From positions 1-24,900 of IMG/VR virus record IMGVR_UViG_3300005758_000180: a stretch of DNA of 24,900 bases; one strand, written 5' to 3'. Source of the stretch: a virus (lineage: Duplodnaviria; Caudoviricetes). The translations under genes were made by a program, and so were the position numbers. Below are positions 1,549 through 22,517 of this stretch, piece by piece. The notes under the pieces are model-generated. The model searched no databases and was not told the DNA's origin. It saw only the letters and a list, made by a program, of their open reading frames with translations. Position 1 is the first letter of the stretch. Each line of letters starts with the position of its first letter.

Positions 1549-2833
1549 TAATAGTTTTTAATGAAGATGGTATTCTTTTTTCTTTAATTTGTTCTAATTT
1601 ATTATCTTCTAATGTTATAAAAATATCTTTATTTGTTAAATCAGTATATAAATACTTGTTTGTTAAATTTACATTATTTGATGAAGACGTTCTTTTTATA
1701 TACCTTACAATACCTAAATTATCTTTATCTGTAATATAATTGTTAGATATTATATCATAATAAAATTCTTCATTTATAATTTCAGCGTTTATGATATTAT
1801 TATTTAATAAATCAGATTCTACACTAATAGATAAAGTTTTTTTTATTACATCTTTATTAAATAAACTGTTAGTATTTAATTTTTCAATAATTGATGCAAA
1901 ACATTCTAAATTTATAGCTTTTTCATCAAGGTCATTATAAAATTCATTGTTACTTTTTACAATATTTTTAATATATTTATAAGGAGTACCTTCTAAAGAT
2001 TCCCATCTAATGTATGAATCTATAGTTGCAAATATTGATATAAAACTTTCAAATTTAGATTTTATGTAAATTGAACTTTCGTTAAAAAAATTAAAAAACT
2101 CATGAATTTTTTTATTTATTTCAGTATCAGAACCTCCATAACATAAATCTGAATCAAGAGAATAACAATCTCCTTGTGAATGAGAAAAATTATAAGAAGA
2201 ATATAATTCGTCTTTAGTTACTACTGGTCTAATAATTCTACAATAATTTCCACCATAATCATTTAAATTATTATCAACAGATATTGGTATCATGAAATTT
2301 ATTTGTGGCATAGTATGTTTTAATCTAAGAGAATTTGAAATTTCAACATTTTTAAATTTTAACATTAAATTAAAAGCACCAGCTCTACAAGTATAACTAC
2401 TTTTTTGGTCACAAAAATTAAATTTATTAAATACAGAAAAATTTAAAACTTCACTTAAAAAAATTTTAGTAAGTTTTTTTCTAGTTGAAGACTCTTTTTC
2501 GCCTACTATAATTTCAAAATCAATATTTAAAAAATCTAATACTTTATGAAAAAACATTAAAATTATAGCATTTGCTTCAGTTTTATATTTATTATTATAC
2601 CCGTTTAATTTTCCTAGTAAAGATTTATTTTCATTTAAATAAACTATAATGTCATTTAATTCATTATTATTTAATAAATTAATAGCTGTTTCAATAAAAG
2701 TTTCTTCAATGTTTTTAATTTCTATTTCAGGTACTACTACTTGTTCTGTGTTTTCTTCTACTTGTTTTATTTTTTCATTATTAATAGATTGAGAAAACAT
2801 CATATCTATTTCTTCAAACAGTAAATCATCCAT
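1475..2833 (-). CDS. Putative prokaryotic E2/UBC-like conjugating enzyme
   Basis: YNFSHSQGDCYSLDSDLCYGG resembles the H..H-x(n)-CxG active-site pattern of prokaryotic E2 families. A WESLEGTPY block follows. The gene sits between the Ubl and JAB genes. Fold is inferred. Confidence 0.6.
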   Translation of the reverse strand: MDDLLFEEIDMMFSQSINNEKIKQVEENTEQVVVPEIEIKNIEETFIETAINLLNNNELNDIIVYLNENKSLLGKLNGYNNKYKTEANAIILMFFHKVLDFLNIDFEIIVGEKESSTRKKLTKIFLSEVLNFSVFNKFNFCDQKSSYTCRAGAFNLMLKFKNVEISNSLRLKHTMPQINFMIPISVDNNLNDYGGNYCRIIRPVVTKDELYSSYNFSHSQGDCYSLDSDLCYGGSDTEINKKIHEFFNFFNESSIYIKSKFESFISIFATIDSYIRWESLEGTPYKYIKNIVKSNNEFYNDLDEKAINLECFASIIEKLNTNSLFNKDVIKKTLSISVESDLLNNNIINAEIINEEFYYDIISNNYITDKDNLGIVRYIKRTSSSNNVNLTNKYLYTDLTNKDIFITLEDNKLEQIKEKRIPSSLKTIIENKIKYYFNKKIYDKYIKKIEKC

Positions 2834-2845
2834 TTTTTTTATTTT

Positions 2846-2878
2846 AAAAAGCCGATAATAATTAAATTATCGGCTTTT
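2846..2878. terminator. Strong, possibly bidirectional, intrinsic terminator
   Basis: Perfect 13-bp inverted repeat AAAAGCCGATAAT-aattaa-ATTATCGGCTTTT (2847-2878). Confidence 0.75.
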
Positions 2879-2885
2879 GTTTTTA

Positions 2886-2984
2886 TTAGATTAAATTGTT
2901 TAAAATTTCAGAATTTATTATAGAAATTAATTTTTTTTGATAAATTTCTAATATGTTTTCTTCTAAAACATCTAAATCTTGCAT
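2886..2984 (-). CDS. 32-aa micro-ORF translationally coupled to the Ubl gene
   Basis: MQDLDVLEENILEIYQKKLISIINSEILNNLI. Its ATG overlaps the Ubl stop (TAATG) and it fills the gap up to the terminator. Confidence 0.5.
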   Translation of the reverse strand: MQDLDVLEENILEIYQKKLISIINSEILNNLI

Positions 2985-3214
2985 TATTTTCCTGATTTAA
3001 TTTCTTTTGTAGCTAAAAATATAATAGCTTCGCCTGAAGGTAATTGAGCATTGTCGTCTTCTAAACTAACTCTTGTTTCTCTAACCATACCTCTTAAATT
3101 AGCTGTAATGAAATCTGAATTTTCAGATTTTAATTGACCCCATGTTGTTGCACTTGTGATAACTTCTTTTCTTACTTGAGAATTTGAGTTAAATAATGTG
3201 ATTTTTCTAGACAT
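2984..3214 (-). CDS. Ubiquitin-like (beta-grasp) protein
   Basis: 76 aa with a beta-beta-alpha-beta pattern (RKITLF / KEVIT / TWGQLK) and a final strand LPSGEAIIFLA. The C-terminus KEIKSG-K has a near-terminal Gly. It lies upstream of the E2, JAB and E1 genes. Confidence 0.7.
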   Translation of the reverse strand: MSRKITLFNSNSQVRKEVITSATTWGQLKSENSDFITANLRGMVRETRVSLEDDNAQLPSGEAIIFLATKEIKSGK

Positions 3215-3236
3215 AATTGTAAATTTTAAATTGTTA

Positions 3237-3842
3237 TTATTTTGTTGTTATTAAATTTGTTTCGTTAGCAACTAAAGTGCTATCTAAATAGTTAATATAA
3301 AATTCCATAAATTCGTTGTATAATTCTTGAAAATCGTATTTATCTAATACATTATCTGCATTATCTAACTTATCTTCAATAGCTATTCTTATAGAATTAT
3401 AATTTATATTAGTGCTTATACCATGTTTTATTAATTTTTTAATAAGAGAATCTTCCATATTTAAGATTTTAAAATAAACACCAGGATTTTCTTTATTAAT
3501 AGAAGTATATTTACCATTTATACTTAAAGGTAAAGGAAACATTACACTTACATTATCATCTTCAATTAATTCTTTTTTTACCATAAAATCTTGAATTGTT
3601 TGAAGAGGATTAATCCAATCATATTTCCTTTTACTATTCCTTACAAAATGAAACCCTATTAATAAAGGATTGCTTAGTTGTCTTTTTTCTATTTCATTTG
3701 TAAATTGATTTTTAATTTCATTAATTTTTTCATCACTATCTTTATAATATTTTAAAGATAATTTACTGCTAATTAACATTTTTCCTGTCCATCTTTTACT
3801 GTTTTTAGAAGATGGTACATTATTCGGAATAAAAAATATCAT
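3237..3842 (-). CDS. rusA: RusA-like Holliday junction resolvase with a C-terminal extension
   Basis: N-terminal IPNNVPSSKNS and the catalytic pattern RKYDWIN...IQD...IEDDN. Confidence 0.7.
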   Translation of the reverse strand: MIFFIPNNVPSSKNSKRWTGKMLISSKLSLKYYKDSDEKINEIKNQFTNEIEKRQLSNPLLIGFHFVRNSKRKYDWINPLQTIQDFMVKKELIEDDNVSVMFPLPLSINGKYTSINKENPGVYFKILNMEDSLIKKLIKHGISTNINYNSIRIAIEDKLDNADNVLDKYDFQELYNEFMEFYINYLDSTLVANETNLITTK

Positions 3843-15745: not shown

Positions 15746-16109
15746 ATTTTTTAATTAAATCTTTTAGTTTAATATCTTTTACAGAATCTGCTATTTTATC
15801 AATTAGTTCATCTACTATTTCATCTCCTAAAGCATCTCTCATAGAATTTTCTATGTTTTTTAATACTTTATAAGTATTTTCATTTACTTTATCTAAAGAT
15901 TTTAAAGTTTTATTTATTTTTTCTTTTTCTACATATTTTTTATTAGCAGGAGATAAAGTATCAAATTTATATTTAACTTTTTCAGAATGTAAATTTATTT
16001 TTCTTATTGTATCTAAACATCCTGTTAAATATATATTAGTTACAGCAGACATTGCAGCAAATACAGCTATATTATCTTTTTCTATTTCATCTAATATTAA
16101 TTTACTCAT
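15723..16109 (-). CDS. Hypothetical protein
   Basis: 128-aa ORF. Confidence 0.65.
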   Translation of the reverse strand: MSKLILDEIEKDNIAVFAAMSAVTNIYLTGCLDTIRKINLHSEKVKYKFDTLSPANKKYVEKEKINKTLKSLDKVNENTYKVLKNIENSMRDALGDEIVDELIDKIADSVKDIKLKDLIKKYADSTKR

Positions 16110-16678
16110 TATGAATTTATTATGTTTAAAAATTTTTCTTCATTATCAAATACTTTAATTATATAAGTTTTTAATTTTATATCATATTTTAAATCTTCAA
16201 AAGCTTTTATATAATGATAAATATTAGTTCTATCTACATTTATTTCTTTACATACTTCTCTTTCAGACATTAATAATTTTTTAAATAAAATAAAAGAAAT
16301 TATTTTTCTAGCGTAAACTAAATGTTCAATTCTTGATTTTGATTTTAATTCAATTAAAGTAATACCAATTTTATCACAAACAAATTTTATAATTTCATCT
16401 TTTTTATTTACACTAACAACAATGTCTAATCCTACAGCTATATAAGGATTTATTTTATTTTTAGACATAATATTTAATGCGTAATCAGAAGTATCGTTTA
16501 TAACTTCAATTTCTTCTTTATTTATTCTAGATAATACTTTTTTTGTTTTTCTTTTGTCTTGGTAAATAAAATAAGATTTATTTTGATTATTTGCCATTAC
16601 TTGATAAACTTCATTATTATATAAAATAGTATGACCTACTCTAATAACAATTCCTTTTTTATCTATTATTTTTTCCAT
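16109..16678 (-). CDS. DnaA C-terminal-like HTH protein with a YopX-like N-terminal region
   Basis: C-terminal ELKSKSR..HLVYARKI....INVDRTNIYHYIK resembles the DnaA domain IV/TrpR-like HTH. N-terminal DKKGIVIRVGHTI resembles YopX-like DkngkeIyeGDi. Confidence 0.65.
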   Translation of the reverse strand: MEKIIDKKGIVIRVGHTILYNNEVYQVMANNQNKSYFIYQDKRKTKKVLSRINKEEIEVINDTSDYALNIMSKNKINPYIAVGLDIVVSVNKKDEIIKFVCDKIGITLIELKSKSRIEHLVYARKIISFILFKKLLMSEREVCKEINVDRTNIYHYIKAFEDLKYDIKLKTYIIKVFDNEEKFLNIINS

Positions 16679-20945: not shown

Positions 20946-21001
20946 AAGGTAATTATGTATCGCTAATTAAACGGTAATTATTAACTTTAATTACAAAGTA
21001 T

Positions 21002-21024
21002 AAAAATGCTAGTCTTTTCTAGCA
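21002..21024 (-). terminator. Terminator-like hairpin downstream of the tRNA-like gene
   Basis: Minus strand TGCTAG-aaaaga-CTAGCA-TTTTT. Confidence 0.5.
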
Positions 21025-21075: not shown

Positions 21076-21206
21076 TGGACAAGGTAAGATTTGAACTTAC
21101 ATTACACATTTGGACTGTCTGTATATCATAAACTATATCCTGTTCCCATTCTGTCCTGAATTAGAAATCAATAGTTTATAGTGTCTACCAATTTCACCAC
21201 TTGTCC
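21076..21206 (-). ncRNA. tRNA-Leu-like RNA (131 nt) with an expanded, non-canonical anticodon arm
   Basis: Acceptor stem GGACAAG/CTTGTCC plus A73; Leu-type D arm TG-GTG-AAATTGGTAGA-CAC; T arm GTAAG-TTCAAAT-CTTAC; long variable arm TATACA/TGTGTA. The anticodon position holds ATAAACTAT/ATAGTTTAT closing a 34-nt insert, with no 7-nt loop. Confidence 0.75.
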
Positions 21207-21229
21207 TATCTTTTTCTGTTTGTTGTTGT

Positions 21230-21545
21230 ATTACAAAAGATAAACGTTATACAATCTCAATCTCCTTATAAATCCTCCTTGTTCACAAGACAAAAAACTG
21301 GGGAGATATGTTTTTACTTTATTAGCACCCTCGTACCTTTACATTAGTTGCTTGGCATCCGCAGTAAAGAGTAGGGTCACGTAGTTATTCTAACTTATTA
21401 CAGACGTTTATTATAAACTTTTTTATTGTATTAGAACTTGTATTAACTACTTGCTGAGAACTCCCAAAGGTTTATAGCAACTTATCTCAAATACATTTGC
21501 ATCCTTTCCTAGTATTACTATTAGGTTTCTATCAGGGTTTAGATT
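21230..21545 (-). ncRNA. Putative structured ncRNA segment (downstream of the HNH gene)
   Basis: No minus-strand ORF; higher GC than the flanking genes; nested stems AAAGG/CCTTT, GTAGTTA/TAACTAC, TTCTAA/TTAGAA, ACCCT/AGGGT and CTTTAC/GTAAAG. Confidence 0.55.
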
Positions 21546-21548
21546 ATT

Positions 21549-22034
21549 TTAAATATGTTTCCAATTTGTTCTTTGTATTATTCCTGCAATACAACCATAA
21601 GAAACATTATACAACTCTGCTAATTTTTGATAAGTTAATTTATTTTCTGTTCTTTTTTTTCGTATTTCTAATACCTGTTCTTCTGTTAATACAGAAAAAC
21701 CATTTTTAGAACCTTTGTTTGAAGCATTACCAAATTCATAAGCATGTTTATCATTTTCTTCTTTTGTAACCCATTCAAGATTATCTAAAGAATTGTTTTC
21801 TCTATTTGAATCTTTATGGTTGATAACATCTTTGTTTTCAGAATTATCAATAAATGCAATTGCTATTAATCTATGTAACTGAAAGTTTTTAATTTCTGTT
21901 TTAGATTTGTACAATTGAATACCAATATATCCATCAGGTCTTTTAAAAGATTTTTTAATTCTTTTAGTTGAAATTCTCCTTACTATTCCTTCAGGATTTA
22001 TTTCATAATCATAGTTTTCTATTTGTTTCCACAT
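21549..22034 (-). CDS. HNH homing endonuclease (NUMOD4-like N-terminus, HNH_3, C-terminal HTH)
   Basis: MWKQIENYDYEINPEG, LHRLIAIAF, INHKDSNRENNSLDNLEWVT..EN..H and an HTH (LTYQKLAELYNVS). Start moved to 22034, downstream of a promoter. Confidence 0.92.
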   Translation of the reverse strand: MWKQIENYDYEINPEGIVRRISTKRIKKSFKRPDGYIGIQLYKSKTEIKNFQLHRLIAIAFIDNSENKDVINHKDSNRENNSLDNLEWVTKEENDKHAYEFGNASNKGSKNGFSVLTEEQVLEIRKKRTENKLTYQKLAELYNVSYGCIAGIIQRTNWKHI

Positions 22035-22048
22035 AATAATATTTTTTA

Positions 22049-22079
22049 CAAATGTACAAATAAAAGTGATTAATACCAA
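22049..22079 (-). promoter_or_regulatory. Bacteroidota sigma-A-type promoter for the HNH gene
   Basis: TTG (22079-22077), 20 nt spacer, then TACATTTG (22056-22049). This matches the -33 TTG / -7 TAnnTTTG consensus and lies 14 nt before the ATG. Confidence 0.65.
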
Positions 22080-22090
22080 GCAATTTTATT

Positions 22091-22130
22091 AAAAAATACT
22101 CCACCCATTATTTCTAACTAGGGTAAGTAT
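22091..22130 (-). terminator. Hairpin plus T6 upstream of the HNH promoter
   Basis: Minus strand ATACTTACCC...GGGTGGAGTAT-TTTTT. Confidence 0.5.
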
Positions 22131-22517
22131 AAGAACTCATTTGTGTTGTAGTGCTACTCCTAACAATCATTAACACTCTTTCCGCTTTCCATTCCTTTCT
22201 CAAGGGAACAACACATCTAGGATTACTCCATTAAATTTTGATTCTAAATACCTTATGCAGTGGATTAGCACCTAAGCTTAGATTAATCAGTAATTAGAGC
22301 TTTTAACTGCTATATGATAACCTCTAAGATATTACCTAGACTAACATTTACAGTAATTAGCTGTGTATTAGCTTACTTCAATTTCTGTAGGATTTCTGGT
22401 ATGAGTAATTCCACTAACTCATATCTGTTAAGTACAGTTACTAAGAATCATTTTATAACACCTTGTCAATTCAAGGTTAACATCCAATTTATAGTGCTTT
22501 CAATGTTTAGTCACTTT
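22130..22517 (-). ncRNA. Putative large structured ncRNA segment (upstream of the HNH gene)
   Basis: No minus-strand ORF. Many stems: CCTTG/CAAGG, long-range TGATTCT/AGAATCA, TATGAGT/ACTCATA, GCAGT/ACTGC, GGA-GTAA-TCC, TGTGTTGT/ACAACACA and AGTGTTA/TAGCACT. Confidence 0.6.

Follow-up and report, generated by a model that had tools for sequence, protein, structure and literature searches.

Introduction

What does a phage keep in a gene that is folded like a tRNA but has no anticodon loop? This question is raised by a locus on the minus strand (21206-21076) of a 24,900-nt stretch of viral DNA, which is referred to here as the window. An initial annotation made from the nucleotide letters described the locus as a tRNA-Leu mimic with no anticodon loop, suggested that the RNA could be leucylated yet unable to decode, and proposed that it may be a decoy for tRNA-targeting defence nucleases, an aminoacyl donor, or a processing signal that matures a large RNA upstream.

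The window is a phage fragment of 22% GC, and nearly all of its long ORFs lie on the minus strand. It encodes PolA, primase, DnaB, a Sak4-like protein, MazG, dNMP kinase and an HNH endonuclease, as well as a protein with a match to the DnaA C-terminal helix-turn-helix (16109-16678, minus strand; PF08299, E 3.6e-9). The top PolA matches are crAss-like phages (about 30% identity), and from this affinity we infer a Bacteroidota host. A second contig (G001; 37 kb, 38% complete), which is 99.9% identical to the window over 2,707 nt, contributes the genes for capsid, portal and terminase, and no tRNA match at E<=1 was found in it. The element is the only tRNA-shaped gene in the approximately 59 kb seen of this phage (window and G001). 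Near-identical pieces of the phage were found in a freshwater metagenome run (X1).

Results

Structure of the element

The Rfam tRNA model matched the element with 41.3 bits (E 9.9e-6, above the gathering score), and this was the sole Rfam match at E<=1 in the window. Its parts are as follows.

21076..21206, minus strand: tRNA-shaped frame RNA of 131 nt, from position 1 to the discriminator A73 (Rfam match and reading of the sequence)
21200..21206, minus strand: 5' strand of the acceptor stem, 7/7 pairs with 21083-21077, including G1-C72, G2-C71 and A3-U70
21181..21197, minus strand: D arm, a 3-bp stem and an 11-nt Leu-type loop with A14, A15, G18, G19 and A20a (Rfam alignment and sequence; identity rules in PMC9976931, available part)
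21127..21180, minus strand: extended arm of 54 nt in place of the anticodon arm, consisting of a 10-bp outer stem, a 4x6 internal loop and an inner hairpin at 21166-21143 (folding and shuffles)
21101..21126, minus strand: long variable arm, a 6-bp stem and an 11-nt loop, with U48 at its end (folding and sequence)
21084..21100, minus strand: T arm, 5/5 bp with a canonical loop (Rfam match and sequence)
21075-21073, minus strand: C74 A75 A76 following the discriminator (read from the sequence)

The intact acceptor, D and T arms, A73, A15/U48 and the long variable arm noted in the initial annotation were all borne out by the Rfam score and the sequence. The seven acceptor pairs are all Watson-Crick, U8 and G9 are present, and the variable region comprises 27 nt. 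The description of a 9-10 bp anticodon stem extended by a second hairpin was likewise accurate: the 27-31/39-43 stem is prolonged to nine Watson-Crick pairs plus U26.G44, and beyond the internal loop lies a hairpin with 8/9 pairs and a 6-nt loop, so that a paired loop of 42 nt occupies the place of the 7-nt anticodon loop. Folding of the 54-nt arm gives -10.9 kcal/mol, compared with -5.2 +/- 2.0 in shuffled sequences (9 of 1000 shuffles equally stable), and the stability of the whole RNA is unremarkable (z -1.07). All stems are intact at a genomic GC of 22%. That CCA is not encoded is true, though nothing special: it is ordinary in these phages, because only 47 of the 216 canonical tRNAs in the fetched phage loci encode it.

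Identity of the body

With regard to aminoacylation, the E. coli leucine determinants A73, U8-A14, A15-U48, G18, G19 and A20a, as listed in the available part of PMC9976931, are all present in the element, and leucylation does not need the anticodon arm (PMC9976931; PMC2377443, available parts). Thus the D loop, A15-U48 and A73 are of Leu type. On the other hand, G1-C72/G2-C71 and the long variable arm are of Ser type, and the anti-SerRS pair C2-G71 is absent (PMC9976931, same part). The identity is mixed Leu/Ser and the original "Leu" label only partly right. Leucylation is a plausible prediction from the published identity rules, and serylation may also be possible.

These determinants also bear on the suggestion that the element is an aminoacyl donor, which LeuRS or SerRS would charge and a tRNA-dependent transferase would use outside the ribosome. 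The presence of the LeuRS determinants and the dispensable anticodon arm agree with it. However, no transferase family is annotated in the window or G001, the 56 proteins flanking 21 copies of related elements in bacterial assemblies share no neighbour gene family, and the discriminator varies in the class described below (G73 in 20 of 187 frames). This makes the donor proposal the least probable of those weighed here, and we give it very little credence.

A tmRNA has a tRNA-like domain, with G3.U70 for alanine identity, together with an mRNA-like domain. The element has A3-U70 and neither ARAGORN nor Rfam called a tmRNA, so this candidate was rejected.

Possibility of an intron

Could the element be an interrupted tRNA, from which a 35-nt insert is spliced out and a 7-nt loop restored, most plausibly with a UAU (Ile) anticodon? 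In the window copy, C32 and U33 are retained and the 27-31/39-43 stem is perfect, 195 of the 462 Ile codons in 15 window ORFs are AUA, and tRNA introns are predicted in Lak phages, with intron-less alleles in one case (PMC6784885, available part). Among 66 members of the class, nine yield some canonical loop by excision against 1.9 in shuffles, but a Leu anticodon in just one (shuffle mean 0.4). The eight possible 35-nt excisions from the element itself give UAU, AAU or AUU; none restores a Leu or Ser anticodon to match the Leu/Ser body, and the UAU product carries G38.

The archaeal-type tRNA intron motif consists of a 3-nt bulge, a 4-bp helix and another 3-nt bulge at the splice sites. Such a bulge-helix-bulge is absent from the element, where positions 32-35 pair with the four bases directly before 39 and no 3' 3-nt bulge is formed. 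An insert of 35 nt is far below self-splicing size, the catalytic core of group I/II introns being about 200 nt or more; with this length and no match to any Rfam intron family at E<=1 in the window, a group I/II intron was rejected. Neither a ligase nor a splicing nuclease is annotated across the 59 kb of this phage. Moreover, all four other elements found to share this acceptor are also oversized (4/4). An intron of the Lak type was rejected as well, since excision gives no cognate anticodon and no insert-less allele was found. Splicing back to a normal 7-nt loop, which had been considered at the outset, is opposed by both the excision products and the relatives, and we regard an intron-containing tRNA as very unlikely.

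A class of tRNA frames in phages

The initial annotation suggested a search for relatives with a variable but paired arm. This proved fruitful and revealed what had been overlooked, a large multi-copy class with unrelated middles. A first scan for a D loop and a T loop 60-90 nt apart gave 88 viral loci with 76 distinct elements including the window copy. In these, the acceptor pairs 7/7 in 57, the T stem 5/5 in 74, U8G9 is present in 74 and A73 in 55. ARAGORN with default settings called none of the 76 at their own position. The window element was also missed by default and became Tyr(AUA) with an insert in a relaxed run that allowed introns, so the anticipated intron call appeared only under the relaxed settings. 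Six or seven acceptor pairs are formed in 66 elements; among these, U48 is retained in 63, whereas the bases at 26-37 appear random (U33 in 23).

The commonest frame occurs in an estimated ~640 IMG/VR stretches and differs from the window acceptor by three compensated pairs, with intermediates in three loci (L027, L087, L167). It was collected in 125 distinct copies of 70-129 nt, a range bounded by the search pattern, and none of the 105 parsed copies has a canonical anticodon arm. Five chosen contigs contained 11, 4, 5, 5 and 4 frame matches, and a reversed-pattern control gave 0. In the contig with 11 copies (G002), each frame has a different middle and the frames are interleaved with a near-complete ordinary tRNA set. 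The frames do not replace missing tRNAs, because this phage also encodes real Leu(UAA), Leu(UAG) and Ser tRNAs. The region concerned (L401; G002:15500-23500) is a jumbo-phage RNA region, in which the 11 matches lie among tRNAs and other unannotated non-coding stretches.

Positions outside the search patterns were counted in 187 distinct frames of at least 98 nt, which are not independent as 121 share one acceptor: U48 was found in 179, A73 in 158, C74 in 172, U-1 in 127 and A-2 in 126. In the 216 canonical tRNAs of the same loci, U-1 was found in 137, A-2 in 129 and C74 in 209 (background T and A 0.32 each). Thus, U-1, A-2, A73 and C74 are conserved in frames about as in the real tRNAs beside them. 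The T-loop elbow is a binding site of RNase P, and in many bacteria the leader base found most often is U-1 (PMC11143913, available part). Acceptors vary across the class with pairing kept. The exact layout of the window copy, an extended arm plus a variable arm, was found in 14 of 151 viral frames. Another frame (downstream frame of L153, 208 nt) has an extra D-loop hairpin plus a long middle. The window element belongs to this class, having the Leu-type D loop, paired acceptor and T arm, U48, A73, C74 and a non-canonical middle.

A scan of GTDB gave 84 distinct matches, 43 of which were dropped as ordinary tRNAs with a second T-loop-like match; 27 are intact long frames, of which three (L190, L248, L260) look like duplicated 5' halves of real tRNAs. 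Eight GTDB frames, chosen by eye, combine a rod-like anticodon arm with the body of a tRNA-Leu, and six of them encode ACCA. In four tRNA-Leu bodies of bacterial assemblies from unrelated taxa (L187, L188, L226 and L254; ~1490-1600, and 289-403 in L254), the rod-like arm begins with U32 U33 G C C, a Gly-like loop sequence.

Searches by protein neighbours, BLASTN and related contigs gave no orthologue with the exact middle of the element. The neighbouring 113-aa protein had no relative among viral contigs, and the upstream 165-aa protein led to one near-identical contig that ends short of the element. Of the 74 phage records matched by the element in BLASTN, the 30 listed showed only 21-27-nt matches to the D loop or T arm and one weak match in coding sequence. 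Contigs of three related populations (X2-X4) have a similar acceptor and T arm at the same place with an unaligned middle; their T stem has one change, for which we claim no compensation. Short conserved motifs nearby were also unaligned, so this is only a hint.

Middles of the frames

The middles are largely unrelated, 181 pooled middles falling into 151 clusters. In 19 clusters of related middles, 28 of 38 changed pairs were kept, 11 of them through two-sided change. Nevertheless, paired and unpaired positions were substituted at about equal rates, so the pattern fits structured filler as well as functional cargo. On average the middles fold weakly (mean z -0.78; 8 of 66 below -2). The structure of the middles is tolerated or mildly selected. 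One middle was found on two different acceptor stems (L027, L083). In two others (L003, L039), the bases of a 6-nt loop could pair with the loop region of the second hairpin and the stems have changed in a compensatory manner, so that a pseudoknot payload is possible. An origin of the middles as guides or spacers was rejected for now, as 22 matches were found in 1.3 Mb against 20-26 for shuffled sequences.

These data bear on another explanation, that the class is a neutral or decaying repeat derived from tRNA. A half-shell of tRNA-Leu/Ser would then spread through non-coding RNA regions, by duplication or recombination, and be tolerated as harmlessly processed. The continuous length range, the mostly unrelated and weakly folding middles, their lack of matches above shuffle level and the patchy presence beside the large RNA described below would all be expected of such a repeat. 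It accounts poorly for the window copy, whose stems are all intact at 22% GC, for class acceptors that vary with pairing retained, and for the similar T5 RNA1, which is kept in 487 phage records with covariation. We consider it unlikely.

The upstream large RNA

The element is preceded by a large non-coding RNA and followed by terminator-like hairpins.

21322..22512, minus strand: large phage non-coding RNA, interrupted by an HNH cassette and homologous to an intergenic region of phage phi14:2 (no Rfam match)
21549..22034, minus strand: HNH endonuclease ORF within an insert of ~676 nt, with a duplicated 7-mer at 22139-22133 and 21463-21457
21207..21321, minus strand: 115-nt linker from the large RNA to the element, part of which aligns in related populations (X3, X4)
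21000..21024, minus strand: intrinsic-terminator-like hairpin and U run, ~50 nt 3' of the element (2 found against a shuffle mean of 0.5)
20945-20925, minus strand: second terminator-like hairpin (same scan)

This large RNA, which is structured, was found in 73 viral loci (among them L089 ~2800-3250 and L091-L163), in several of which it adjoins tmRNA or tRNA genes. Phage phi14:2 makes two abundant, stable intergenic RNAs (Drobysheva et al., bioRxiv 2020.03.07.982082, available part), and judging from homology the large RNA is probably one of them. The phi14:2 locus also contains an unannotated tmRNA-like match (L089 3921-4392; 46 bits, just below the gathering score), which overlaps small annotated ORFs.

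The 3' end of the HNH insert resembles a compact version of the large RNA's own 5' half. Rather than an intron, the insert may thus be a homing cassette that brings along a substitute for this half. Inserts of this kind are present in three other loci (L091, L146, L094), and a fourth (L135) has a related HNH ORF with the same 3' piece. The insert is missing from populations X3 and X4.

The element is likely to be the last unit of one transcript with the large RNA, because it starts 115 nt past the RNA's 3' end and ends ~50 nt before the terminator-like hairpin. Promoter scans were at chance (12 against 12.5; 38 against 54 for the Bacteroidota -7 motif). In the related populations, the trailer and terminators are missing and the element is placed directly before the next ORF.

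Does the element mature the large RNA, as had been proposed? Among 60 distinct copies of the large RNA, nine are followed within 300 nt by a tRNA-shaped unit, which in four cases lies at a distance of 3-6 nt; none was detected within 300 nt downstream in the other 51, phi14:2 included, by a detector that overlooked one canonical tRNA-Trp (L105). In two of 40 copies, a frame lies 3-4 nt upstream of the large RNA. The exact abutment seen in some copies speaks for frames being able to act as cut marks, and they are not required for maturation of the large RNA because they are absent from most copies, including that of phi14:2. With the 115-nt gap in the window, the proposal is weakened. In one locus (L402, ~1370-1460), a degenerate T-arm/acceptor piece lies within the large RNA's variable 3' stem and a full frame 3-4 nt past the RNA end.

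Discussion

The comparison supports the view that the element is a maintained, non-decoding tRNA-shaped gene, because the elbow and processing positions are conserved class-wide, no sensible splice product is obtained, and the counterpart in phage T5 covaries. The suggestions of the initial annotation that the RNA is unable to decode and that its intact pairing speaks against simple decay are therefore supported. What would such a gene do? We favour the reading that host tRNA-processing enzymes probably excise the non-decoding tRNA frame from the non-coding transcript of the phage, and that the frame would serve as a handle for this processing and as a scaffold that shields an interchangeable payload of 80 nt from nucleases, because the frame occurs in hundreds of contigs with unrelated middles, in several copies per genome and with conserved elbow and processing positions. 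We put it at an even chance of being correct.

A possible course of events, drawn from the sequences, is as follows. The element would be co-transcribed as the last unit behind the large RNA, as far as the terminator at 21024-21000. RNase P would cut before G1 and thereby also free the upstream RNA, and 3' trimming and CCA addition would follow. LeuRS or SerRS may charge the product, which would not decode since it has no 7-nt loop. The anticodon/variable slot would therefore be free to drift or to carry structured cargo. Some findings run against this model: in the window copy the base at -1 is A, not U, and the large RNA is 115 nt away, and 51 of 60 large RNAs have no unit detected within 300 nt downstream.

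In a bolder form of this model, phages would have evolved a tRNA-scaffold cassette of natural origin. Its acceptor/elbow frame would be nearly invariant, and the position of the anticodon arm would be taken by various structured small RNAs, with as many as 11 different payloads in one genome; the host tRNA machinery would thereby mass-produce and stabilise a small-RNA arsenal of the phage. The window element would be one such cassette. We advance this tentatively, as a possibility that we think is more probably wrong than right. If the payloads are functional, they would represent a so far unnoticed reservoir of phage small RNAs, each supplied with its own expression frame.

The main rival to the handle and scaffold reading is the decoy, also put forward in the initial annotation. 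Here the matured frame would accumulate and soak up defence or toxin enzymes that grip the acceptor, the T arm or the CCA tail, and the middle would be randomised only against mis-decoding and anticodon nucleases. Anticodon nucleases are unlikely targets of such a decoy, since the element lacks the very loop that they attack and so has no site for them; candidates remain among the enzymes gripping the acceptor and T arm. For example, Cas12a3 engages the tail, acceptor and T arm, which correspond to the conserved half of the frame (acceptor, T arm and C74), and removal of tRNA loops left its cleavage unimpaired (PMC12851939, available part). Several copies per genome would raise the dosage, and a Leu/Ser-chargeable body with an arbitrary anticodon would be expected to mistranslate, judging from the identity rules (PMC9976931, available part). 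On the other hand, phage tRNAs in the OLD study achieved rescue by standing in for the cut tRNA rather than by shielding it (PMC12445682, available part), the acceptor end is not kept in T5 RNA1 (U.U first pair, U73 and no CCA), and exact abutment to the large RNA is not predicted by a decoy. We therefore rate it as rather improbable. If the frame does act as a decoy, it would be a counter to defences that attack the tRNA acceptor end. Apart from the choice between handle and decoy, the comparison separates a selected half (acceptor, elbow and processing positions) from a free half (the anticodon/variable slot).

Comparison with known systems

Bacterial class II tRNA-Leu/Ser (Rfam RF00005) share with the element the acceptor, D and T arms, the Levitt pair, the long variable arm and an Rfam score above gathering. 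They differ in having a 7-nt loop instead of a structured loop of 42 nt and in lacking its mixed Leu/Ser identity. Moreover, ARAGORN Leu calls in the same loci are mostly 81-87 nt, against 131 nt for the element. A decoding tRNA-Leu or tRNA-Ser was rejected: the 7-bp acceptor, D and T arms, A73, A15-U48 and G18/G19 are all there, and a 7-nt loop with a Leu or Ser anticodon is not.

The "enigmatic" tRNA introns of Lak megaphages (Devoto 2019; PMC6784885) similarly enlarge a phage tRNA gene by extra sequence in the anticodon loop. In the available parts of that report and its preprint (PMC6784885; bioRxiv 356790), the anticodons predicted for these genes are ordinary (Tyr GUA, Thr UGU, Phe GAA, Gly UCC), whereas no cognate anticodon can be restored in the element. 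The Lak inserts are mostly 52-141 nt, identical across cohorts, and have one intron-less allele (PMC6784885 Table S6, available part), in contrast to the element, for which no insert-less allele was found.

Allo-tRNAs also have a class II-like body with a non-cognate identity, and irregular tRNA-like polycistrons have been reported with them (PMC7609411, available part). However, they are of the 8/4 or 9/3 type with a real anticodon loop (same source), whereas the element has a 7/5 acceptor/T structure without this loop. Membership was rejected on the 7/5 structure. The T4 species 1/2 RNAs (rnaC, rnaD) are small stable phage RNAs from a tRNA region, and rnaC has a T arm. Unlike the element, they lack a D arm of Leu type and the order of a cloverleaf, and the Rfam tRNA model does not match them; they were rejected as a direct type because of this difference in architecture.

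The closest likeness is to RNA1 of phage T5 (NC_005859 30501-30644), annotated as "tRNA-like stable RNA with unknown functions"; T5 RNA2 is similar. In T5 RNA1 the D loop is of Leu type, the 5-bp anticodon stem leads by way of an internal loop to a second hairpin, the variable arm has 6 bp, the T arm is canonical and the 7-nt anticodon loop is missing; like the element, this RNA sits among phage RNA genes. In contrast to the perfect acceptor, A73 and C74 of the element, T5 RNA1 has a U.U first pair, U73 and no C74/CCA. The two align at the D and T loops only, and no T5-like phage was found among the 30 listed of 74 records at E<=10 that would indicate homology of the extended arm. The element is therefore like T5 RNA1 in architecture and not homologous to it in the arm.

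In 11 T5 RNA1 orthologues, picked across the identity range, two-sided change was found in 12 of 35 pairs, seven of them in the extended arm, although the pairing figures are inflated as the structure was drawn from T5 itself. The middle of T5 RNA1 is conserved over the 487 phage records, whereas the middles of the freshwater frames are for the most part unrelated and a genome contains several of the frames. The open-access literature searched gave no description of a multi-copy frame with unrelated payloads; the element taken singly is a variant of something already annotated in T5. The T4 and T5 annotations list tRNA-like RNAs under "unknown function", and default tRNA callers skip them. This old unknown is now directly testable, as T5 RNA1 is tractable in E. 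coli.
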